A DNA stretch of 20,599 nucleotides from assembly GCA_964513765.1 (NCBI GenBank), contig CAZEPC010000034.1, forward strand, positions 1 to 20,599, read 5' to 3'. This document shows, one piece after another, positions 4,504-20,599 of this stretch. This DNA is from an uncultured archaeon (lineage in GTDB: Archaea > Asgardarchaeota > Lokiarchaeia > Sigyniarchaeales > Promethearchaeaceae). The position numbers and the translations under genes were made by a program. Numbering within the stretch: position 1 is the stretch's first letter; every line of letters starts with the position of its first letter. The notes under the pieces are model-generated. The model had not been told where the DNA came from. It did not search any database and saw nothing but the letters and a program-made list of their open reading frames with translations.

Positions 4504-5544
4504 ATGATAAACTATCAACGATTCTGGTCAAAACATCTGAAAAATAAGGTAAAAATGGCCAATGAAGCAATTAAAACTAAGAACTTCACCCGTATCGAAG
4601 AAATCTTGGAAGATTTAATTACCCTGTTAAAGGACACCAAAAATATTAATTGGAAAGATAGGGTGGCTATTTGTTTTATATTGGAACAAATGGCTGCAGT
4701 GGATCCTTTGATGGATAATATCGTTGATGGTCTCATGGAGGTTCTGGAAAATGAAAAAGACCCCCATGTAAAGGAGTTTGCGGTTTGGGCTTTGGGTGAG
4801 ATTGTCGAGAAAGCTCAATCTTTGGAATTAATTAAACTCACAATGCCAGTCATTATGAAATTCTTAAACGACGATTCGGAACAGGTGAGGTCTTTTGCGA
4901 ATGATTTACATTCAAGGTTTAAAGAAGTTTTAAAAGAAAAACAAGAGATAAACGAAAAAATAAGCAATCAAAGAGATAAATTAATGTCTCTTATTGAAGG
5001 AAGCTTAGATGATGTTGAAGAAAGGAGTAAAAATATTTCTAAAGATGCGCTAAGCTTGGATTATAAAACTGCTCATGAACGACAAGATGAATTCCGGAGA
5101 AGGATCGCTGAATTTAAACAGAAAAATCAAGAGTTAGAAGATGAAATTTTAGAACTTGATGAACAATTGATTGAAGAGGTGGGCCCCTTTAAGGGGGAAA
5201 GTCTTGAGATTATCCGCTATTGGCGTAAAGAAAGGGCAAAGAAAGAGGATTTAATTAGAAGGGTTGAATGTATTTTACGTATTCAATCAAAAATTTGGAA
5301 AATTATTCAATTTATCACCTCTCTATCACCTGATGAAAATTTGAAAATTGATCAAATTAAAGAAATTACCAAAAAAACTGGGAGACCGTACTCTGAAAAA
5401 GAAGTTATTGAGATTCTTCAAAAATTGGTGGATGAAGAAATAGTTCCAACTTTTATGCTTGATCAAATTAAGGATTATCAAATTAAAGCCAAGGAATATG
5501 CCCAAAGCAACGGAGAGGGAAATCGGGAAGAACGAGATCTATGA
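4504..5544 (+). CDS. HEAT-repeat / coiled-coil / C-terminal winged-helix-like protein (function unknown)
   Basis: HEAT-like units: DPHVKEFAVWALGEIVEKA and DDSEQVRSFANDL. A long heptad-rich K/E/Q segment spans aa ~140-220. The C-terminus IDQIKEITKKTGRPYSEKEVIEILQKLVDEEIV looks wHTH-like. An alternative start at 4555 (MANEAIK) is preceded by AAGGT. Confidence 0.6.
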   Translation: MINYQRFWSKHLKNKVKMANEAIKTKNFTRIEEILEDLITLLKDTKNINWKDRVAICFILEQMAAVDPLMDNIVDGLMEVLENEKDPHVKEFAVWALGEIVEKAQSLELIKLTMPVIMKFLNDDSEQVRSFANDLHSRFKEVLKEKQEINEKISNQRDKLMSLIEGSLDDVEERSKNISKDALSLDYKTAHERQDEFRRRIAEFKQKNQELEDEILELDEQLIEEVGPFKGESLEIIRYWRKERAKKEDLIRRVECILRIQSKIWKIIQFITSLSPDENLKIDQIKEITKKTGRPYSEKEVIEILQKLVDEEIVPTFMLDQIKDYQIKAKEYAQSNGEGNREERDL

Positions 5545-7604: not shown

Positions 7605-7967
7605 CTAAAAACCGAATTTATCGTTAGGGGCAACAATTATTTTTCCTCTATTGAGCTTGGATATGGATCCTCCGTGCTGAAGACAATATTTTTTGATAAG
7701 ATTCAATTGTTTTTGAAGAGGTCTCCTATCTTTCGTGGGACCATTTGCTAAATTTACCAAATTGTTTAAATTTACGATCATTATATTTCCATTTAGCAAT
7801 TCATGTCTCAGCAGCATGAAATCTCTATTTGATTTTATTTTAATTTGTTTAATAAAGATTCTTTTCTCAAGATCAGGTACATTAAGATTTCCATCGTCCA
7901 AGGCAGCATCTCTGTCTTCCTTGTTCCTTTTTTTATCCTTTGATTTAGTCCATGAAAATAGTCCCAT
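7605..7967 (-). CDS. sepF: SepF-like cell-division protein (FtsZ membrane anchor, DUF552 fold)
   Basis: The N-terminal amphipathic MGLFSWTKSK resembles a membrane-targeting helix, and a charged linker follows. The core is IFIKQIKIKSNRDFMLLRHELLNGNIMIVNLNNL...LIKKYCLQHGGSISKLNRGKIIVAPNDKF. This is collinear with the SepF pattern (strand, helix, x-G-x-hydrophobic-VNL, ..., GG-x-I-x-K/R-hydrophobic, ..., hydrophobic-x-P-x-N/D). Confidence 0.6.
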   Translation of the reverse strand: MGLFSWTKSKDKKRNKEDRDAALDDGNLNVPDLEKRIFIKQIKIKSNRDFMLLRHELLNGNIMIVNLNNLVNLANGPTKDRRPLQKQLNLIKKYCLQHGGSISKLNRGKIIVAPNDKFGF

Positions 7968-8637: not shown

Positions 8638-8660
8638 CTTGGAATCACTTTGTTATTTTT

Positions 8661-9314: not shown

Positions 9315-9327
9315 ATATTATCACGGA

Positions 9328-12300: not shown

Positions 12301-12843
12301 AATACCCCCTTCAATAAAATCACATAAGGTTTTCTCATCAAAATCCTTAATCTTATCTATGTTTCCTTGTGACATAAAACAGAAAATATTCTCGGGTGAA
12401 ATTCCAATTTCATCCACAAATTTTACTATTTTGCTGCTGGTGGATCTTTTAAATTCTTCCTCTCCCGGTTGCTTAAAATAAAATGAAGGGCTACTTTTTC
12501 GGTGAACCCTTCGCTTAATTCCATATTTTTTTCCATCAACATCAATAAAAAGCTCCACATAGGCAGCGTTTTCCCCGTCCCGAATAAATTCGGACCATTT
12601 GGTATATCTTCCATCATAATTATTGCTTCCAAGTGCAAACTTGATGGATTGATAGATTGAACTTTTTCCTGCACCATTTGGCCCATAAGCAATCGTGAAT
12701 TTGGGATGGAGTATGATTTCTTCATAATCGAAGGATAGAAAATTATTTGCCACAATCTTCGTAATTTTGATTTTTTGTGGTTTTAGACCATCTCCGGTTG
12801 AATTAAAAAGACTTTCCGATATTGAATCTTGAATTTTTTCCAT
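9328..12843 (-). CDS. smc: SMC-family chromosome-organisation ATPase (1171 aa)
   Basis: Walker A is YGPNGAGKSS (nt 12661-12684) and the Q-loop is FMSQGNI. Two long K/E-rich coiled-coil arms flank a globular hinge at aa ~505-685, with no CxxC zinc hook: CVGPLIDYISFNDIFQQAIKSIFGYHVLYSFIARNNEAFYRLKRIAQDCGARINIY...WIVTLDGEQIRP. The signature motif is LSGLSGGQRS (9616-9630) and Walker B/D-loop is PFNIYDEIEMFLD (9523-9558). GAGGAG lies 13 nt upstream of the ATG. Confidence 0.9.
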   Translation of the reverse strand: MEKIQDSISESLFNSTGDGLKPQKIKITKIVANNFLSFDYEEIILHPKFTIAYGPNGAGKSSIYQSIKFALGSNNYDGRYTKWSEFIRDGENAAYVELFIDVDGKKYGIKRRVHRKSSPSFYFKQPGEEEFKRSTSSKIVKFVDEIGISPENIFCFMSQGNIDKIKDFDEKTLCDFIEGGIGLSTLRKRILDQKNKVEELKRDHEALEARKKNLQFQILSLKPKIRKLKEKLKLEKEVEGLKNELLWVQRKNILKKIHKYEKKIKDNQNKINETQQKILKIEKEIKDFELDLGEKKSNNEDLFEEISEKKAEKGVIENKVKKYNQEKNDIGKKINESKEKIHEKREEVQAFQIEYDKLEEKIKKIQKSIDSSENSIETLENEQQEIIKKSQKYQDLILDLEKKKQLKESLQTKKKENEKKHKGYEEKINNKLADIKKIRHELEDYKWFMKNPSEDLKEKYEKASKKYRNTINILEDDLDHLQDKYTQITKKMDEVKKSVYSKDMPKPKSIQKMMQTIRERNMHHKCVGPLIDYISFNDIFQQAIKSIFGYHVLYSFIARNNEAFYRLKRIAQDCGARINIYMERNRKVRKLSEPKNAGQQGILGYLVNKIRILHKDPAIEKVVHSRAKNTLVVKDNVVGTNYIQKYNYKGWIVTLDGEQIRPKNLVIESRPFIKKKGSFSFSSVAETKQYLKKLEEEASKNRKLYNQRMEKKKNLEEKGKKIDKRLRSLGMLLNKFKKMEIHSNTKDSYIDKRESLYDEINAIEEELEKIEKDLENIKADLPKDIYQDQKRLNEIPEEIKAIKNDLEEFITTKENNNEQLQDVNNKLITAKTTLKFLEEKKTDLMRKLENMDSNFMKLINKNMKLTDEIEDLENELGAIKDEIKEIEDEKKEKVKEKEQLSLELYKIQTDTQNFRDYIQEKEGKLERIRKKIQEADNKKKLKSERSLEEIQEEIDKKNKELQEYRDVDRSLFKKRHELKETIKIISDKKSEILEEIEAAKNTEQNFEDKYYTKYSKSLVNLEKQINDKFTEAELGFSANIELQGGIKELGVAINTTFHTPSGEPVTRKLSGLSGGQRSMVGICLMLSLNQLNPSPFNIYDEIEMFLDPDNAQTVAKLIHNLTKNGYQFMILMPDKSKTLIQLADKVIGVCKNGKYGCSMVLNTKFTTEKSE

Positions 12844-12863
12844 TTTTTTCCAGTACTCCTCTT

Positions 12864-14636
12864 TTATTTTATATCTGTAACGATATTAATATGTAAGATT
12901 TTTTCAATTCTTACCTTCGCATCATTTAATTTCTTTAAAGCTAACTCGGGATCAACCTTCAGCAAAAAAGGGTAATCTGCCAACGTTTTTCTATCTATTT
13001 CATGTAATATATGTCCTTTTTTCAATTTATCAAGGGCAATGCTGATATTTTGGTAGTCTTTAGAGGCTGCATCCAGATACATTTGGTTTTCAAATTCTTT
13101 CACCGTAGAGGGGAAGATATTGCCCCCATCAAGGGAATCAATGGTTTTCTCGTCCTTAATAATACCAAATGATCGTTCCGTTTTAGATCTGCTCTCTTTT
13201 TTAGAATTCCTTGAAGCTTTTCTCCATTGAAAATCTTGTTTCTCAATTAAATTTTGTAAGAATGAAGTATCTAAGTTCAGTTCTTCTGTCGGATTTTTAA
13301 ATTGCTCTAAATTCTTGTTCAAGATAACCTTTTTTACAAAACCTCTTATATCAGCTAAACCACAATCTTCGATGTTAAGTGAAATTTGTTCAAAATCGAC
13401 TTGTTGATATAAGTTCTTCTTACTATACTGTTCAAAACAAAACTCTAAAAATTCGCTGCGGATTTTTTGGTTAGGATCTTGTATATCTAATTTTACATAC
13501 TCACTTTCTACCATTTCATAGTCTTGTTTATTTTGTTTCAGATCCTGTAGAATGATTATGAGATTTAATTTTTGGATATCAATTTTACTAATTTTCTCCA
13601 ATAAGGAGGAGATAAAAAAATGTTTGGAGAAAAACTGTCCGTTTTCTAAAACCTGATTGGGAATTTGGTCGATAATGTTTGAGTATTCTATGAGAGGAAT
13701 ATAGAGTAGAAATAGATCCTTTTGATATTCTTTGTCATATTGAGTATTTTCCTTTTGGACTTTGTTTTTAATTTTGTTGTTTTTTTGAAGAAAGATTTTA
13801 GAAATTTTCCTTTCTAGATACTCTAAATTTTGGAAGATTCTTGAAAAGAAATTTGTGAAGTTTAAAGTATAGCTCTCTATTCCATTTATCGCAGAATAAG
13901 AACGTAAAAATCTTTGAATTTCATGCCCCCGGGAGCTAAAAAGTATTATTTTCGGTTTGTACCATTGAGATAGATCATCAAAATTTTCATCCCATTTTCT
14001 CTTTTTTTCAATCTGAGATCTTTCTCTGCCCTTTGTTTTTTCCTCATTTAAACGAGGGGTGTTTTTTTCCGTATTATCTTCTTCTTCATTCTCCGGAATT
14101 TCTTTCTGTCTTTTTTCTTTTTTCTTTTTATTCTTTTGATTTTTACCCTCTGAATCTTTGATTTGATCTTTTCCATCTAGGTTATCTTTATAATTTTCCT
14201 CTTGTTCACTTTTCTTTTCATCTTCTTTAGGCTCCTCCCTTTTAAAATCTTCTCTATTAGGTCCTTGCTTTTTAAGACTTAATTTATTTGTATTCGAGTT
14301 AATCTGCTCCTTTTTGAGAAATCTCTGGGATATTTCAAGAATATTGTATAAATCTTCATAAAGGGGAAAATACCCTTTTATTGAATAATCCACGTTCATA
14401 GAGTTATTATAAAGGAGATTGAGAATCTCTCTTTCTCTATTTTGTTGATTTTTACTAAGATTTGTTCGTGATTGACCACTATGATGTTTGTATATTAAGG
14501 TTTTTGCATTTTTTTCTTTCTCCATAGAAAAATCCATGGTATTTTCTTGTAATTCAACCTTTCCCTTTTTTTCTTTTTCAGATTTCTTATTTGATCCATC
14601 TTGGGATTCTGTCGGACCCTTCTCCTTTTTGTTCAT
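12864..14636 (-). CDS. Degenerate (pseudo-)AAA ATPase-fold protein with an N-terminal helical region and a ~110-aa K/E/N-rich disordered linker; first gene of the SMC operon
   Basis: Residues ~226-440 are collinear with a classical AAA module, but the catalytic motifs are lost. KPKIILFSSRGHEIQRFLRSYSAINGIESYTLNFTNFFSRIF stands in for the consensus PKGVLL-x-GPPGTGKT-x-LAKAVA...F. DLFLLYIPLIEYS replaces hhhhDEID. LNLIIILQDL...VKLDIQDPNQKIRSEFLEF...VDFEQISLNIEDCGLADIRGFVKKV stands in for the consensus sensor/lid region i-x-x-P-D-x-x-x-R-x-x-I-L...G-x-S-G-A-D-I. The linker (aa ~105-215) is EEPKEDEKKSEQEENYKDNLDGKDQIKDSEGKNQKNKKKKEKRQKEIPENEEEDN. Confidence 0.55.
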   Translation of the reverse strand: MNKKEKGPTESQDGSNKKSEKEKKGKVELQENTMDFSMEKEKNAKTLIYKHHSGQSRTNLSKNQQNREREILNLLYNNSMNVDYSIKGYFPLYEDLYNILEISQRFLKKEQINSNTNKLSLKKQGPNREDFKREEPKEDEKKSEQEENYKDNLDGKDQIKDSEGKNQKNKKKKEKRQKEIPENEEEDNTEKNTPRLNEEKTKGRERSQIEKKRKWDENFDDLSQWYKPKIILFSSRGHEIQRFLRSYSAINGIESYTLNFTNFFSRIFQNLEYLERKISKIFLQKNNKIKNKVQKENTQYDKEYQKDLFLLYIPLIEYSNIIDQIPNQVLENGQFFSKHFFISSLLEKISKIDIQKLNLIIILQDLKQNKQDYEMVESEYVKLDIQDPNQKIRSEFLEFCFEQYSKKNLYQQVDFEQISLNIEDCGLADIRGFVKKVILNKNLEQFKNPTEELNLDTSFLQNLIEKQDFQWRKASRNSKKESRSKTERSFGIIKDEKTIDSLDGGNIFPSTVKEFENQMYLDAASKDYQNISIALDKLKKGHILHEIDRKTLADYPFLLKVDPELALKKLNDAKVRIEKILHINIVTDIK

Positions 14637-14670
14637 TCAATCTTTCCCTAATTCTTATTCAAATCTCTCT

Positions 14671-14682
14671 GTATTAAAATAT
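14671..14682 (-). promoter_or_regulatory. Candidate TATA box for the AAA-like/smc/scpA/scpB operon
   Basis: The minus strand reads gATATTTTAATACagagagatttgaataagaattagggaaagattgaATG. The TATA-like element is centred ~41 nt upstream of ATG 14636. Confidence 0.3.
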
Positions 14683-14783
14683 CATTATTCCCAAAAAAAT
14701 TTTCCACGATTGGGATTTATCTGATTTTAAATTAATAAAGAGAGAAAAAGGAATAAAAAGATTTCTTATATAGTAAATAGATT

Positions 14784-16328
14784 TTATTTATTGTTTTTGG
14801 TGTTTACATATCTTCCATATAGGACTGTCATCTGATCCAGCCATTCTTTCTTAATTTGAGGTACTTTTTCTATATCAATTATATATTGCCAATTTCCTTG
14901 AGATTCACTAGGGGTATTCATTCTAAATTGTTCGTTTTGACCCAAAATGTCTTGAAACTGCACAATTACACAATTTGCGACACTTTTATACAACTCTTGA
15001 ATCATTCCTTCTCCAATATTATTCTTTTTTAAATTTAAGTATAAGAGTAATCTTCTTTTTTCATCTTTGGTTGCATCATTATTCCAAAAGCCCTTGATTG
15101 TGTTATTATCATGGGTTCCAGGATATACAATCGTTTTTCTTTCATAATTATGTGGTAAGTGTGGATTATTATAATCGCTACTAAAAGCAAATTGTAAAAC
15201 AGCCATACCTGGAAATCCAAATTTCTTCCGAAGTTGCTCAACCTTTGGAGTAATCACACCTAAATTCTCTGCAATTATAGGAAGCTCACCAAGAACATTT
15301 TTAATCTCGATGAAAAGCTGTTTTCCGGGAGCTTCAACCCATTTCCCTTTAATTGCATTTTCAGCATCTCCCTTTACTCTCCAATATGCTTCAAATCCCC
15401 GGAAATGATCAATTCGGATATAATCAACTAATTCTAGCAATCTCTTAATTCTATGGATAAACCAAATATAATTATCTTCTTTTAGTTTATCCCAATTATA
15501 AAGGGGATTGCCCCACAACTGCCCTGTTTTTGAAAAATAATCTGGGGGAACACCTGCTTGGTATTTTAAACTGCCATCTTCTTTAAGAGTAAATAATTCT
15601 TTGTTGCACCAAACATCTGATGAATCATGTGCCACAAAAATGGGCATATCTCCAATAATTTTCACTCCATTCTTATGGGCAAACTTTCTGAGTTCTTTCC
15701 ATTGTTCATCAAAAAGCCACTGGATAAATTTATAATATTTAAGTTTCTTCTTATGCATTGCCGCATATACCTTAATTGCATTTTCTCCTCTCTTAAAATA
15801 ATTTTCCTTCCATTCTGTCCAAGGTTTGAGGTCATGGTCTATTTTTAATGTGTAAAATAAGACATAATCATCTAACCAATATGCTTGCTTGTCACAAAAT
15901 GCTTTGAATTTTTCATGGAATTCAGCATATTTGCTCTCGGATTGATTGAAATTTTTAAAGCACTCTTGAAATACCTTGTATTTGCATTTTCTCACCCTCT
16001 CATAATCAATTTTCATCTTTTTGGTCCATTTTTTATACAGCTGATTGCCTTCTTCAAATATTTTTAAGGCTATGTTTTCCTCGATTAAATCCATCTTAAT
16101 AAGTTTATCAATGCTAATTAATAATGGATTCCCGGCAAATGCAGATAATCCTTGATATGGTGAATCTGCATATCCTGTAGGACCTAAAGGGAGCATTTGC
16201 CAAAAAGATTGTTTGGTGTTTTTTAAAAATTCTATAAATTCAAAAGCAATTGGCCCAATATCCCCTATTCCATATTTCGTGAAAAGAGATGTTGGGTGTA
16301 GCAAAATACCAGAAGATCTGGGAAGCAT
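14784..16328 (-). CDS. malQ: 4-alpha-glucanotransferase (amylomaltase / disproportionating enzyme, GH77)
   Basis: SSGILLHPTSL...YGIGDIGP...FIEFLKNTKQSFWQMLPLGPTGYADSPYQGLSAFAGNPLLISID; GDMPIFVAHDSSDVW; GVPPDYFSKTGQLWGNPLYNW; IDHFRGFEAYW; VVYPGTHDNNT. These are the canonical GH77 blocks, in the expected order and at the expected length (514 aa). Confidence 0.93.
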   Translation of the reverse strand: MLPRSSGILLHPTSLFTKYGIGDIGPIAFEFIEFLKNTKQSFWQMLPLGPTGYADSPYQGLSAFAGNPLLISIDKLIKMDLIEENIALKIFEEGNQLYKKWTKKMKIDYERVRKCKYKVFQECFKNFNQSESKYAEFHEKFKAFCDKQAYWLDDYVLFYTLKIDHDLKPWTEWKENYFKRGENAIKVYAAMHKKKLKYYKFIQWLFDEQWKELRKFAHKNGVKIIGDMPIFVAHDSSDVWCNKELFTLKEDGSLKYQAGVPPDYFSKTGQLWGNPLYNWDKLKEDNYIWFIHRIKRLLELVDYIRIDHFRGFEAYWRVKGDAENAIKGKWVEAPGKQLFIEIKNVLGELPIIAENLGVITPKVEQLRKKFGFPGMAVLQFAFSSDYNNPHLPHNYERKTIVYPGTHDNNTIKGFWNNDATKDEKRRLLLYLNLKKNNIGEGMIQELYKSVANCVIVQFQDILGQNEQFRMNTPSESQGNWQYIIDIEKVPQIKKEWLDQMTVLYGRYVNTKNNK

Positions 16329-16406: not shown

Positions 16407-19400
16407 TTAGGCTTTCTTCAGCTCTTCAAGCTTTTTAAACTGTTTTTGGGCTTCCTTCATTTTATTTATATTATCTAAGGAGGCGAAAGCCTCAAGAGCC
16501 TCGTTGAGCATTTGTTTAGCATTTTCGAAATCTCTTCTAAATGTGTGGATTTTTCCCAATTGTAAATAGCAATCGGGGGTGAAGAATTCATTGGGTGCTA
16601 AATCTATAGCGGTTTCGAAAGATTTAATGGCGTAATCAATAAATTTTGGCTCTTCCTTTTGGTGCATGAAGATCATCCCTTGATCATAAAATTGCTTTCC
16701 ATCGGGAGAGTAGGACTTTGCGAAGAAAGTCGAATAATATTGGAGAAGTGGATTTTGTTCTTCGAAATATCCTTTGAAGCTTATTAAGGAATCGATCCTA
16801 TCAATAGTTTCCAATATCTCTGTGTCATAATTACTATAATATGCTTGTTCCAAGAGATCTTTTATAGTTAAAAGCAATTTATTGTTTTTCTCTTGTTCAA
16901 CAAACAAGAATGCCGGAAGGAGATCTTGGAGGGAATCGGAGATCTCATTCATAACCACCGTAGGAACACCCTTTAGTTGGATGGCTTCGATTAAAATTAT
17001 GATAATATTCCCAATTGTAAATTGCTCCTTTTCTGAGAATCGTAACCAAGAAATTTGGTTATAAAATTGCTCATTCTCGATGACTCTTTTAGCATTTCCT
17101 CTTTTTATCATCCCCTCTCCAATTTTATAGAGTGCTTTTGCAATAACATCCTTGGCATATACATTTGTATCTCCTATTAATGCTTGTTGAAGGGTGATTA
17201 CAATTTCATTGGAAGGGTGGGAGGATCCTATGTTTCCCAAGCTTTCCGCGTAGAGTTCCACTTCCGAGATATTCTCTTTTTTGGTTCTGTCCAGATGGAA
17301 AAATCCATTAATTAGTGCTTCTATAATGAGATCTGCCACTTCAATTTTCTTCCCAATGAGCCCTAACGCATATATTGTTTGGAGTCTGATTTGGATTCTT
17401 TCATCTTTCAACATTTTAATAATCTTATTGAGATTTATTTCATTATAACGCCTTTGGCCGATCATTCCTAAGGCAAAAACAGCATTTTCTCTTACTTTAG
17501 GATCCTGATGGGAAAGTAAATCATATAGCATCGTAAGATCTACTTCTTTATGGATTTCGTCATTCATCAATCCCAAGGCCTCTGTCAAATCTCTAGTGAC
17601 CTCCAGATTCTTTCCCTTTATATGTGTTTCGAGGATATCATATATATTTTCCTTTGAGGTAGGTCCGATTGCTTTGATCGCTTCACTGGCCCTATTTTTT
17701 ACTTCGGTATTTTCATCCCCCAATTTATCGAGATAGAATTGGAGAACACTCATAGATTGCCCATCAATTTTTATTTTTTCAAATCCTTTTTCTTCATTCA
17801 TAACCAAGAATTCAGAGATGCTCTCAATGGCCATTTCCCTTACATCCTCATCTGCATCATCTATCGAAATTTTTATTAAAATTTCTAAAATTCGTTCTTT
17901 CTCTGAATGGAGGACTTCCTCGCTTTTATTTTTTGGACTCAATAGAATGTAATTTCCAATGGCATCACAGGCCACATATCGAATATAAGGCTCAGCATCA
18001 TCCAAATAATTTATGACTTTTTGTAACGGGAATGATTCCAAGTTATAATAGACACAATACGCGATAATGTTTAGGGAATATTGAATGACAAATTGAATTG
18101 CAGAATGGTTTAAATTTTCAAATTCCCCAGTTTCTTTCTTATATTCTAAAAATGGGTATATTTTTTCCAAGGAAATCTGTTTTGGAACCTTTGCAGTTAA
18201 ATTTAAAATAGTTTCCAAGGCATTTTCCACGATTTCTTCATTCATAGAATTTTCTTCTAAGATTCTATACAGAAATTCTAAGGCAATGGAAACGAATTCA
18301 TTGTCGTTGTAGTCTCCCTCGATTATCATTTCTGTTATTGCGTCACTAGCCCGTTTCCTTAAATCGAAATCCTTAGAAGTCATAAAAATGCCCAATTTTT
18401 TGAGGATTTTCGATATGTTTTTCTTTCCTTCCCCAATATCTCCTATTGCGTCAAAAATGGCTTTTTGCATTTGAGGTTCGGATTTTGAGATTGCACTTAT
18501 AAGCCTTTGCATTATTAATTTTGGATGTTCTTGCCCTATTTGCCCTAATAACTGGACTCCCTCCTTGCTAAAGAAAACCCTCTGAATATCTAGCTTTACG
18601 CGCATTTTGATGAGAGTTCTGTCCAATTTTTCAAAAATCCTAGCCAATAAAGAGAGGTTTTTAATATTTTCTGGGCTGTATTCAATTGTGTTTTGGGCAA
18701 CTACCTCCACAATTTTTTTAGCTCTATCCTCATCCTCATAGGCAGCCAGATAAAGATATTGCTGTGATTTTTTTCGAACACTTTTATGAAGATCCACTCC
18801 ATTTTTATCAAAGAGTGGATATAATAACACGGACTTCACCAATATGTCCAAATCCTTAATATTTACCGTTTCAATTTTTTTCTCTTTTCTTTTTGCTTTT
18901 TGTAACTCATCGATTGAACGTAATCCAAAAGACCTATTTACTGAATTAAGCTTAAGATCCGCGTGGAAATCAGTATTTCTATTAATCAATAAATATCCTC
19001 CAAAAAACACCATTATGAATCCTTGAGTAGAAATTAAGGGTAATGTAATCAGAGGATCCGAAAAGAGGGTGTTTAAGGGTTGAAGTATGCTATACCGACT
19101 TAGAATTGCATTTAATAAGTTTGGCGCGATTACCGAAAAATTGATGAGTATATTAATGCTAATTGCAATAAAAATCCAAACCGAAAACATAAAATCTATT
19201 GTTTTTGTTTTACTTTTTTTACGCCAATATTTGGAAAAGAACCCATATACAGCAAAAATAACTTGTATGCAGAGGGTTATGAATGAAATAATTGAAAAAC
19301 CCGTATCAAGTGTCTCCCCTTGTCTTAAACTCATTCCTTTTGAAATCGAAGAATATATTGTGTAGAATCCCGAAATAAATGGGATCCATGCAATTAGAAT

Positions 19401-20084
19401 CGTAAAAATATGGATTATTTTCTTAAAAAAATCCTTTAGGCTGTTGGAATTCTTCTGTTTTGTAATGTATCTCTCTTCTCGGGGATCGATATGGAGTTGA
19501 TGGCTATACGTGGTTGAGATAATTCCTGCAATTTGACCTGAGGCCGAAAATGTACTAAGGAATATCAAGGGAATAAAAGCAAACCATAGATAAAGCATTT
19601 CCACGAAAGTTTTATCCAAAAAATAATAGAGAATGAATACTGGTACAAAGTAGATGATAAGGAATACTCCAAATGAAGCAATATATGATTTTTTTCCCTT
19701 GAATCTGTCTAAAAATTTCTCTTCCAGCTTTTTATCAAAATTTGTGGTTGCATCAGATGTCGGTCTGGCTAAGACTGTTGCATTATACACAGGAAAAGCC
19801 ATCAACATCAAAATTAAAAAGATTATCATAAATTGTATAAAATTTGTGCCAGATAGATCATTTGGCCGAAAGACGCCATAGAAAAGATTAATGAGCACGA
19901 CCCAAACCGCGGAAAAAATCCCAGCAAATATTATACAAGTTCCGATATCTTCGACATTGAATTTCTCCCGTTCAATTAAATTAACCTTTTTGAGATTTCC
20001 GTATACCAATAAAAATCCCACAATAAATGATATAACAGCGGCGGTAATAGAGAGTATCAGTACAAAATCTGAAATATCTACCAT
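16407..20084 (-). CDS. Large polytopic membrane protein: ~9-10 N-terminal TM helices, a long array of PBS-lyase-type HEAT repeats and a C-terminal TPR-like module
   Basis: The first ~375 aa are dominated by hydrophobic helices, for example FVLILSITAAVISFIVGFLLVY, CIIFAGIFSAVWVVLINLFY and FIQFMIIFLILMLMAFPVY. HEAT units: DFDLRKRASDAITEM, EPYIRYVACDAIGNY, DEDVREMAIESI, NTEVKNRASEAIKAIG, DPKVRENAVFALGMIG, DERIQIRLQTIYALGLIG. The C-terminus is YAIKSFETAIDLAPNEFFTPDCYLQLGKIHTFRRDFENAKQMLNEALEAF. The ATG overlaps the upstream stop (TAATG at 20082-20086). Confidence 0.75.
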   Translation of the reverse strand: MVDISDFVLILSITAAVISFIVGFLLVYGNLKKVNLIEREKFNVEDIGTCIIFAGIFSAVWVVLINLFYGVFRPNDLSGTNFIQFMIIFLILMLMAFPVYNATVLARPTSDATTNFDKKLEEKFLDRFKGKKSYIASFGVFLIIYFVPVFILYYFLDKTFVEMLYLWFAFIPLIFLSTFSASGQIAGIISTTYSHQLHIDPREERYITKQKNSNSLKDFFKKIIHIFTILIAWIPFISGFYTIYSSISKGMSLRQGETLDTGFSIISFITLCIQVIFAVYGFFSKYWRKKSKTKTIDFMFSVWIFIAISINILINFSVIAPNLLNAILSRYSILQPLNTLFSDPLITLPLISTQGFIMVFFGGYLLINRNTDFHADLKLNSVNRSFGLRSIDELQKAKRKEKKIETVNIKDLDILVKSVLLYPLFDKNGVDLHKSVRKKSQQYLYLAAYEDEDRAKKIVEVVAQNTIEYSPENIKNLSLLARIFEKLDRTLIKMRVKLDIQRVFFSKEGVQLLGQIGQEHPKLIMQRLISAISKSEPQMQKAIFDAIGDIGEGKKNISKILKKLGIFMTSKDFDLRKRASDAITEMIIEGDYNDNEFVSIALEFLYRILEENSMNEEIVENALETILNLTAKVPKQISLEKIYPFLEYKKETGEFENLNHSAIQFVIQYSLNIIAYCVYYNLESFPLQKVINYLDDAEPYIRYVACDAIGNYILLSPKNKSEEVLHSEKERILEILIKISIDDADEDVREMAIESISEFLVMNEEKGFEKIKIDGQSMSVLQFYLDKLGDENTEVKNRASEAIKAIGPTSKENIYDILETHIKGKNLEVTRDLTEALGLMNDEIHKEVDLTMLYDLLSHQDPKVRENAVFALGMIGQRRYNEINLNKIIKMLKDERIQIRLQTIYALGLIGKKIEVADLIIEALINGFFHLDRTKKENISEVELYAESLGNIGSSHPSNEIVITLQQALIGDTNVYAKDVIAKALYKIGEGMIKRGNAKRVIENEQFYNQISWLRFSEKEQFTIGNIIIILIEAIQLKGVPTVVMNEISDSLQDLLPAFLFVEQEKNNKLLLTIKDLLEQAYYSNYDTEILETIDRIDSLISFKGYFEEQNPLLQYYSTFFAKSYSPDGKQFYDQGMIFMHQKEEPKFIDYAIKSFETAIDLAPNEFFTPDCYLQLGKIHTFRRDFENAKQMLNEALEAFASLDNINKMKEAQKQFKKLEELKKA

Positions 20085-20503
20085 TATTCGATTTCCTCCA
20101 TATTTTTCACTTTATTCTGAATAGTTTTTACGGTTTCTAAGGATATAGTTTGGTTTTCTTCCTCTTTTTCTTCGTGAATTTTCTTTATTGCGTAAAAAAT
20201 TTCATTTTGATCCGTTTCTCGTAGCATTTTATAATTAGTATAGCCTGCCTCCCATAATAAATTGGCAATATAAATATTTATCCCGTCAATTCTAAGGAGA
20301 TTTATATATTTAAGAAATTCTCTGTAATCGCTTCTGCTCATATTCAGTATTTTTCTCCTTAATCCCTTGATCATATCTTTCCGATACACAAAATCTTCTA
20401 TTGTGTAAATCCCGAATTTTCCGAGATCGGATGCTTGGTCAACCGAAAATCCAGGTATCAGAACGAGAGGGATTGCACTTCCATATTTAGATTTTTTAAC
20501 CAT
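20084..20503 (-). CDS. Small protein with two helix-hairpin-helix-like units (DUF4332-like)
   Basis: LIPGFSVDQASDLGKFGIYTIEDF and LLRIDGINIYIANLLWEAGYTNYKMLRETD both fit the DUF4332/HhH pattern (L-x-x-I-x-G-I-x...L-x-x-x-G-I-x-T-x-x-D-L). The tail is acidic. The track ORF starts at a TTG (20506); the adjacent ATG at 20503 is preferred. Confidence 0.5.
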   Translation of the reverse strand: MVKKSKYGSAIPLVLIPGFSVDQASDLGKFGIYTIEDFVYRKDMIKGLRRKILNMSRSDYREFLKYINLLRIDGINIYIANLLWEAGYTNYKMLRETDQNEIFYAIKKIHEEKEEENQTISLETVKTIQNKVKNMEEIE

Positions 20504-20599
20504 CAATTTTGCGTAATATATCCACTCGCCGATCTGTGAGAATGTGGGATATTGGAGTAATATTAAATAAGTTTCTGTATCTAATTTTTTTAATTTATA

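Follow-up and report, generated by a model that had tools for sequence, protein, structure and literature searches.

Two kinds of SMC-kleisin-kite operon have been described in archaea, one related to condensin and cohesin and the other related to SMC5/6, and both of them are found in P. syntrophicum MK-D1 (Yoshinaga & Inagaki PMC8665677; van Hooff et al. 10.1101/2024.01.07.573240). The SMC5/6-related operon encodes an SMC protein that is sister to Smc5/6, an Nse4-related kleisin and an Nse1/3-related kite, and hawk proteins were undetected in prokaryotes (van Hooff et al. 10.1101/2024.01.07.573240). An AAA-like gene is mentioned in neither PMC8665677 nor 10.1101/2024.01.07.573240. Here we analysed a stretch of 20,599 nucleotides (nt) from an uncultured archaeon of the Lokiarchaeia (contig CAZEPC010000034.1; hereafter the window), which carries on its minus strand a gene for a degenerate AAA-type protein of 590 amino acids (aa), here called pAAA, followed by genes for a divergent SMC protein, a kleisin-like protein and a kite-like protein. 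The results indicate that pAAA represents an undescribed, Asgard-restricted pseudo-ATPase family and a new fourth gene of an SMC-kleisin-kite operon. An earlier note on this DNA was aware of no described SMC-ScpAB operon with a pseudo-AAA partner, and our literature searching turned up none; pAAA itself is undescribed in the literature found by full-text searching and falls in no Pfam, NCBIfam or PADLOC family.

Similar to the Smc-ScpAB operon, the locus in the window has an SMC gene followed by a kleisin-sized and a kite-sized gene with tiny gaps between them, and its SMC protein has every ABC motif as well as a hinge. The key difference is that the Asgard cassette SMC is divergent and that the pAAA gene comes first, whereas no pAAA gene lies upstream of the canonical archaeal SMC locus with adjoining ScpA that was checked as a control (P0015). 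The operons described in MK-D1 (PMC8665677, 10.1101/2024.01.07.573240) are likewise Asgard SMC-kleisin-kite operons, and MK-D1 also has the pAAA cassette (L016, NZ_CP042905.2:4,296,001-4,304,000).

The pAAA family was collected with phmmer: aa 215-590 were compared exhaustively with 1.84 billion representatives, and 59 homologue clusters were obtained at E up to 1e-3. For the genome scan, the C-terminal domain was represented by a degenerate DNA pattern built by hand (~54 bits), which fits 52 of the 59 family members and was run on one genome per species (GTDB r232). The scan gave at least 119 loci; those listed are all from genomes labelled as Asgard or as uncultured archaeon except one, and they include both of the cultured species checked, P. 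syntrophicum MK-D1 and L. ossiferum B35, as well as some metagenome-assembled genomes with the submitter labels Hermod-, Hod- or Odinarchaeota. The exception (L094, DATKTW010000069.1) is labelled 'Candidatus Nanopelagicaceae bacterium', bears the complete pAAA-SMC-kleisin-kite cassette and is most likely a mis-binned contig. Among the matches listed, the same SMC clade lies directly after pAAA on the same strand in 118 of 119 loci, and in the remaining one the contig ends and leaves no room for SMC; the gap between the two genes has a median of 20 nt and a maximum of 66 nt (94 loci). A gene of 202 to 268 aa, mostly about 216 aa, is found 3' of SMC in all 55 complete loci among these matches, and in most of the 55 a second gene then follows, mostly of 169 to 187 aa. 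The cassette is present as a single copy in essentially every genome matched.

The linkage was also seen from the side of the SMC gene. The SMC orthologues share 32% to 42% identity and are all labelled Promethearchaeota or Lokiarchaeota, and at the nine orthologue loci that were looked up independently, a pAAA family member is directly 5' of SMC in all nine. At L005, L006 and L129 the pairing of pAAA with SMC is retained although the flanking genes differ. The four-gene cassette, with gaps of about 20 nt, is thus retained in at least 118 species-level Asgard genomes, and homologues recur directly 5' of smc in relatives, which the earlier note had proposed to look for.

The layout of the locus was described correctly in that note, with every coordinate and motif string borne out, including the reading frame, the distance of 20 nt to the SMC gene and the GAGGAG within it, and the gaps of 20, 13 and 23 nt that link the four genes were confirmed from the positions of the reading frames (Table 1). 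In relatives' loci with gene calls, the gap 5' of pAAA is 128 to 341 nt in comparison to about 20 nt on the 3' side. The wide gap before pAAA and the tiny gaps after it together fit a four-gene unit that begins at pAAA, and the genes are presumably co-transcribed, with the AT-rich region 5' of pAAA as the candidate start of the unit. As regards a terminator between pAAA and smc, inspection of the 20-nt junction revealed no T-tract, and the corresponding gap never exceeds the maximum given above for 94 loci. A scan for sigma-70 promoters and hairpin terminators found sites no commoner than in shuffled sequences, and it employed bacterial models that are inapplicable to archaea.

The pAAA sequence of the window alone has no match in Pfam, NCBIfam or PDB sequences. 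A family profile (A1) was therefore built from 38 full-length relatives and searched against PDB sequences. The highest total score was obtained for Cdc48A (E 7.8e-21, in two domains of about 38 bits each, with D1 and D2 both aligning), followed by p97 (E about 1e-18), CdvC/Vps4 (E 2.7e-16) and VAT (E 2e-14), and the best per-domain score was that of CdvC/Vps4, with 62.8 bits in one domain. An AlphaFold2 model made from an alignment of 59 sequences had a mean predicted local distance difference test score (pLDDT) of 73.5, with values above 90 across most of aa 230-470, and it shows a five-stranded alpha/beta domain (strands 229-234, 254-257, 309-314, 359-366 and 381-384) with a helical lid over aa ~226-470. 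Foldseek comparison of this model with the PDB placed Vps4 (4lcb) at the top with E 9.4e-8, followed by many p97 D1 chains at about 3e-7, and the Vps4 and p97 alignments had E values of 1e-7 to 1e-6 across 240 to 270 columns. Based on the agreement of profile and fold matches, aa ~226-470 of pAAA form a classical AAA module with the fold kept, which confirms the AAA module that the earlier note had placed at residues ~226-440. The family appears to derive from the classical AAA clade and to be nearest, per domain, to Vps4/CdvC and then to Cdc48/VAT. In Pfam (PF00004 plus AAA_lid_3), pAAA stays below the gathering threshold: the query has no Pfam match, and only 3 of the 38 relatives touch PF00004, with E 0.039 or worse.

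To describe the catalytic motifs, about 150 non-redundant family members were aligned to the profile, and the frequencies below refer to this set. The Walker A segment of the family reads G-x-L-L-I-N-x-N-P-G-T-D-I-x-D-[FY]-L-K-L. The position of the P-loop Lys is occupied by I in 65% and L in 25% of members and by K in 0%, and the preceding Gly position carries D in 70% and E in 19%; in the query, these two positions are I240 and E239. In the Walker B strand, the query has P314-L315 at the D-E positions, where the family has N in 49%, D in 18%, E in 12% and P in 6% at position 314, and Q in 58%, L in 9%, I in 7%, N in 7% and E in 5% at position 315. The conserved F-D is preceded by the two arginine-finger positions, which have E/D/N and I/V where Cdc48 reads RFGRFD, and neither of them holds Arg. 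The pore loop of Vps4/CdvC has an aromatic residue and the GESE motif, which serves to thread substrate; the region of pAAA aligned to Cdc48 KLAGESE is gapped and unconserved. Structural motifs of the classical clade are retained: D of the F-D at 379-380 is present in 96% of members and R393 of P-x(6)-R in 95%, and the lid keeps W-N-x-x-D. The sensor-1 Asn is retained in 65% of members.

The residues required for ATP binding and hydrolysis (Walker A Lys, D-E pair of Walker B, arginine fingers) have thus been lost, together with GESE, in every subfamily sampled, and pAAA is predicted to be catalytically dead. The profile alignment agrees with the earlier reading of FSSRGHEIQ and LLYIPLIE as degenerate Walker A and Walker B motifs and revealed intact motifs in none of the members of any subfamily, so that the catalytic loss first suggested for one protein would hold for the family, with its missing Lys, mostly N-Q Walker B and missing arginine finger. 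The median ratio of nonsynonymous to synonymous substitution rates (dN/dS) across 42 independent orthologue pairs was 0.18 and the maximum was 0.31. Purifying selection of this strength indicates an old and maintained pseudo-ATPase rather than a decaying gene, and together with the 59 homologue clusters it excludes a chance reading frame.

Conservation of pAAA is not highest in the AAA module. The C-terminal helical domain leads with 2.81 bits per column, ahead of the N-terminal motif (2.43), the lid (2.25) and the AAA core (1.75), and Q518, A524, F557, L570 and A573 are among its conserved residues. Its pLDDT is about 97 within the full model; modelled on its own, the domain reaches 89.6 and is predicted as two long helices with two short ones between them, and a fold search of this model gave no PDB match with E <1. 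An MIT-domain identity was considered for it and rejected, given this result and the lack of a Pfam match anywhere in the protein. The N-terminal helices are placed at 62-80 and 94-122 in the AlphaFold2 model, and a disordered linker at aa 481-507 separates the lid from the C-terminal domain. In the Loki-type subfamily, a motif M-x-[ED]-[QK]-x-P-x(2,3)-[ST]-K stands ahead of the disordered N-terminal stretch (for example in P0050, P0053, P0056, P0063, P0064, P0071 and the genes upstream of SMC in L001 and L007), and it is loosely retained in the query (MNKKEKGPTESQ). The charged low-complexity linker pointed out in the earlier note is real, disordered and K/E/D/N-rich, with K/E/D/N/Q/S/R/T making up 82% of aa 123-225 and pLDDT below 50 over 131-195; within the family alignment, however, a long insert at this site is confined to the query, P0048 and P0049. 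The linker is, by this alignment, lineage-specific and no family-wide feature, and it would act as a lineage-specific flexible spacer.

In the SMC protein of the window, Walker A reads GPNGAGKS, the signature LSGGQRS and the Walker B/D-loop IYDEIEMFLD, and a hinge is present; GPNGAGKS, MSQG (Q-loop), LSGGQRS and YDExxMFLD are invariant across the cassette SMC clade. The protein of the window matches Pfam SMC_N and SMC1 to SMC6 in the PDB, with the hinge matched in its orthologues, and the SMC profile scored 170 bits for SMC4, 144 for SMC3, 133 for SMC6, 127 for SMC2 and 111 for SMC5. It falls below the equivalog cut-offs of both TIGR02169 (186 bits, cut-off 729) and TIGR02168 (202 bits, cut-off 567); with TIGR02169, the orthologues of MK-D1, L. 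ossiferum and P0011 reach 182 to 221 bits in comparison to 854.6 bits for the canonical archaeal SMC P0015. Judging from these scores, the cassette SMCs represent a divergent Asgard clade and not the SMC of canonical Smc-ScpAB. Their signature is LSGGQ(R)S where canonical SMCs read LSGGEK, and at the H-loop position they have L-[ML]-P-[SD]-K, without His and with a 2-residue insert relative to canonical SMCs; a proline at the H-loop position is known from Smc5/6. The MFLD D-loop was considered as an Smc6-like mark and set aside, being found also in canonical archaeal SMCs.

The two smaller partners are less easily assigned. The kleisin-like protein has no Pfam or PDB sequence match; 1 of 25 members matches NCBIfam ScpA with a marginal E of 0.007, and hhalign comparison with genuine archaeal ScpA gave a likewise marginal E of 0.064 with the C-termini in register. 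The kite-like protein has no PDB sequence match; 2 of 24 members match Pfam SMC_ScpB with E 1.2e-6, other members have weak winged-helix/helix-turn-helix matches, and the L001 orthologue has a weak precomputed ScpB match, all of which suggests, weakly, a ScpB-like protein. Of the genes named in the earlier note, the SMC-family gene stands, with a divergent SMC, and the kleisin-like and kite-like genes are weakly matched.

As to which of the described operons the cassette corresponds to, the PDB profile scores of the SMC are mixed. Its orientation on the plus strand in MK-D1 and its occurrence in essentially every genome matched lean towards the SMC5/6-related one, whereas the weak ScpB matches of the kite lean towards the other operon or a third one. 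The counts for MK-D1, with two 'unknown' kleisins and two ScpB-like kites, likewise point away from the SMC5/6-related operon, or to a third operon.

Based on these results, we favour a role of pAAA as a non-catalytic accessory or regulatory subunit of the SMC complex, which would probably dock through its C- and N-terminal helical elements and modulate DNA loading or the ATPase cycle. The dead AAA module would act as a rigid scaffold, while the C-terminal helical domain and the N-terminal Y-F-P-x-Y-E helices would dock onto SMC, kleisin or kite. Scc2/Scc4 are known as non-catalytic accessory factors of cohesin. By analogy with Nse5/6 or Scc2/4, the contact made by pAAA would tune DNA loading or the SMC ATPase cycle. 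Nse5/Nse6 of Smc5/6 are described in PMC8327961 as non-catalytic accessory proteins by which loading and the SMC ATPase are regulated. Both pairs are alpha-solenoid proteins that are not homologous to pAAA, so that the likeness would be functional only. A bolder version of this reading, which we put forward tentatively, is that a Vps4/Cdc48-derived pseudo-ATPase may be an obligatory fourth subunit and represent a new class of SMC accessory protein, not kite-, hawk- or Nse5/6-like, that loads or gates the complex via its C-terminal domain.

Several points weigh against the accessory-subunit reading. The closest relatives of the window are syntenic over their whole neighbourhoods, and there the linkage alone overstates functional coupling; the genomes are mostly labelled Promethearchaeota or uncultured archaeon, with a few other Asgard phylum labels. 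No fold relative of the C-terminal domain could be recognised, which makes the docking role a guess, the kleisin identity is weakly suggested by position, size and marginal ScpA similarity, and the degenerate P-loop leaves room for non-canonical nucleotide binding.

Among the other explanations, the one that survives best, though we regard it as unlikely, is that pAAA is co-located and perhaps co-transcribed with the SMC genes and has a separate role, for example as a degenerate Vps4 paralogue in ESCRT function or cell division timed with segregation. The two proteins have the same alpha/beta subdomain and lid, pAAA keeps the F-D, P-x(6)-R and lid W/F-x-x-x-D-L motifs, its best per-domain similarity is to Vps4/CdvC, and both the window and L001 have a weak SepF-like gene just 3' of the cassette. 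However, pAAA differs from Vps4/CdvC in having no MIT domain (there is neither an N-terminal Pfam match nor a C-terminal MIT fold match), no Walker A Lys, Walker B D-E, GESE or arginine fingers, and in adding a conserved C-terminal helical domain that is unrelated; its gene accompanies SMC genes rather than ESCRT-III genes, ESCRT genes being absent nearby, and its linkage to SMC persists where the other neighbours differ and the SepF-like gene is missing.

It is quite improbable that pAAA serves as an adaptor that links the SMC complex to active Cdc48/VAT or Vps4 rings, co-assembling with them or docking onto them by the surfaces of its AAA fold, in order to extract SMC-kleisin from DNA for unloading or turnover. 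The module is nearest to Vps4/Cdc48, the lid and the inter-protomer motifs (F-D at 379-380 and R393) are kept, and inactive AAA modules are known inside mixed rings such as the D1 of Pex1/Pex6 and the D2 of NSF, all of which would suit such an adaptor. But pAAA lacks the arginine fingers and nucleotide-binding residues by which classical AAA rings are normally held together, and none of the loci examined has an active AAA gene linked to the cassette. In comparison to Cdc48/p97/VAT themselves, pAAA is a single AAA module without an N-domain and is predicted to be catalytically dead.

We give very little weight to a Wadjet/MksBEFG- or Lamassu-like defence system in which pAAA would be an effector or sensor. 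The layout of SMC, kleisin and kite plus one extra subunit does resemble the four-gene JetABCD cassette, and the SMC head has generic LmuB and JetC matches in PADLOC, but pAAA, the kleisin-like and the kite-like proteins match no PADLOC model. The extra subunit of Wadjet is a Toprim nuclease (JetD/MksG), whereas pAAA has no nuclease or other effector domain; the pAAA cassette is distributed lineage-wide, with its one copy per genome unlike patchy defence islands, and in the relatives of the window it stands in synteny with housekeeping genes, among them TFIIB and RtcB, both of which are also present in the window (G+C ~32%). That pAAA is still an ATPase or nucleotide sensor acting through non-canonical residues, as the retained sensor-1 Asn and the isosteric N-Q of the majority Walker B might allow, is hardly credible for a family in which no member has a P-loop Lys, the phosphate-facing Gly position is mostly acidic and Arg is missing from the arginine-finger positions.

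SMC complexes are central to chromosome organisation, and how archaea control their ATPase and DNA loading is poorly known, as the origin of eukaryotic SMC accessory factors is an open question. As a strictly linked, strongly conserved and unannotated fourth gene, pAAA could provide a concrete and testable candidate regulator in cultured Asgard species, and it offers a clean natural case of the AAA fold reused as a predicted non-catalytic module. If pAAA is indeed an SMC subunit, Asgard archaea, to which eukaryotes are more closely related than to any other known archaea, would run one SMC complex as a four-subunit machine, and if the cassette is the SMC5/6-related operon, pAAA would provide an archaeal equivalent of the loader function of Smc5/6, built on a different fold.

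Table 1. Features of the pAAA cassette in the window, with positions numbered along its forward strand.
Feature	Position in protein (aa)	Position in window	Strand	Remarks
AT-rich intergenic region 5' of pAAA, 147 nt		14637..14783	-	T-tracts after GH77 gene, then TATA-like stretches
pAAA gene, 590 aa		12864..14636	-	ATG start; first gene of cassette; reading frame, 59 homologue clusters, profile, AlphaFold2/Foldseek, dN/dS
Disordered K/E-rich N-terminus	1-57	14466..14636	-	pLDDT <50, composition
Two predicted helices with motif Y-F-P-x-Y-E-x-L	58-122	14271..14465	-	Family alignment; 2.43 bits/column
Charged low-complexity linker	123-225	13962..14270	-	Insert in closest relatives of the window only
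AAA large alpha/beta subdomain (predicted), degenerate motifs	226-385	13482..13961	-	Aligned to Cdc48 D1/D2, Vps4
Pseudo-Walker A FSSRGHEIQ	233-241	13914..13940	-	Aligned to Cdc48 GPPGSGKT (HMMER)
Pseudo-Walker B LLYIPLIE	310-317	13686..13709	-	Strand 309-314; LLYIPL (310-315) aligns with hhhhDE
Alpha-helical lid (predicted)	386-470	13227..13481	-	P-x(6)-R and W-N-x-x-D kept; 2.25 bits/column
C-terminal helical domain (predicted), ~80 aa	510-590	12867..13109	-	Best-conserved part of family; 2.81 bits/column
pAAA stop codon		12864-12866	-	
pAAA-SMC junction, 20 nt		12844..12863	-	Shine-Dalgarno-like GAGGAG at 12856-12861
SMC start ATG		12841-12843	-	
Divergent SMC gene, 1171 aa		9328..12843	-	ABC motifs, hinge
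SMC to kleisin-like gap, 13 nt		9315-9327		
Kleisin-like gene, 217 aa		8661..9314	-	Position, size, weak ScpA similarity
Kleisin-like to kite-like gap, 23 nt		8638-8660		
Kite-like gene, 190 aa		8065..8637	-	Position kept after kleisin-like gene; weak ScpB matches

Some of the genes that flank the cassette are shared with its closest relatives. On the 3' side, a 120-aa gene (7605-7967, minus strand), 97 nt from the kite-like gene, has a sub-threshold SepF match (E 2e-4) and a 49%-identical orthologue at the same position in L001, and could belong to the unit as a fifth gene in the lineage of the window. On the 5' side, a GH77 4-alpha-glucanotransferase gene (14784-16328, minus strand) is kept in the closest relatives between the cassette and a HEAT-repeat gene, with an additional GH57 gene there in L007, and GH77 represents unrelated metabolism within a conserved neighbourhood. 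The HEAT-repeat protein (1225 aa, 16407-20084, minus strand) has a hydrophobic, membrane-like N-terminal third, C-terminal HEAT/TPR repeats and a weak Pfam Cnd1 match; a 41%-identical orthologue occupies the same place in L004, where the order is again HEAT, GH77, pAAA and SMC, and HEAT genes of a similar kind are found at this place in L001, L007 and L128, with none near the cassette in L005, L006 and L129. It was considered as a hawk and set aside on its hydrophobic N-terminal third, its generic HEAT/Cnd1 matches and its linkage in the closest relatives only, and the Cnd1 match is probably generic HEAT similarity. A DUF4332 protein (20084-20506, minus strand), whose gene has one base in common with the start of the HEAT gene, adjoins the HEAT gene in L004 too, and a second HEAT-repeat protein of 346 aa with a weak adaptin-like match is encoded at 4504-5544 on the plus strand.

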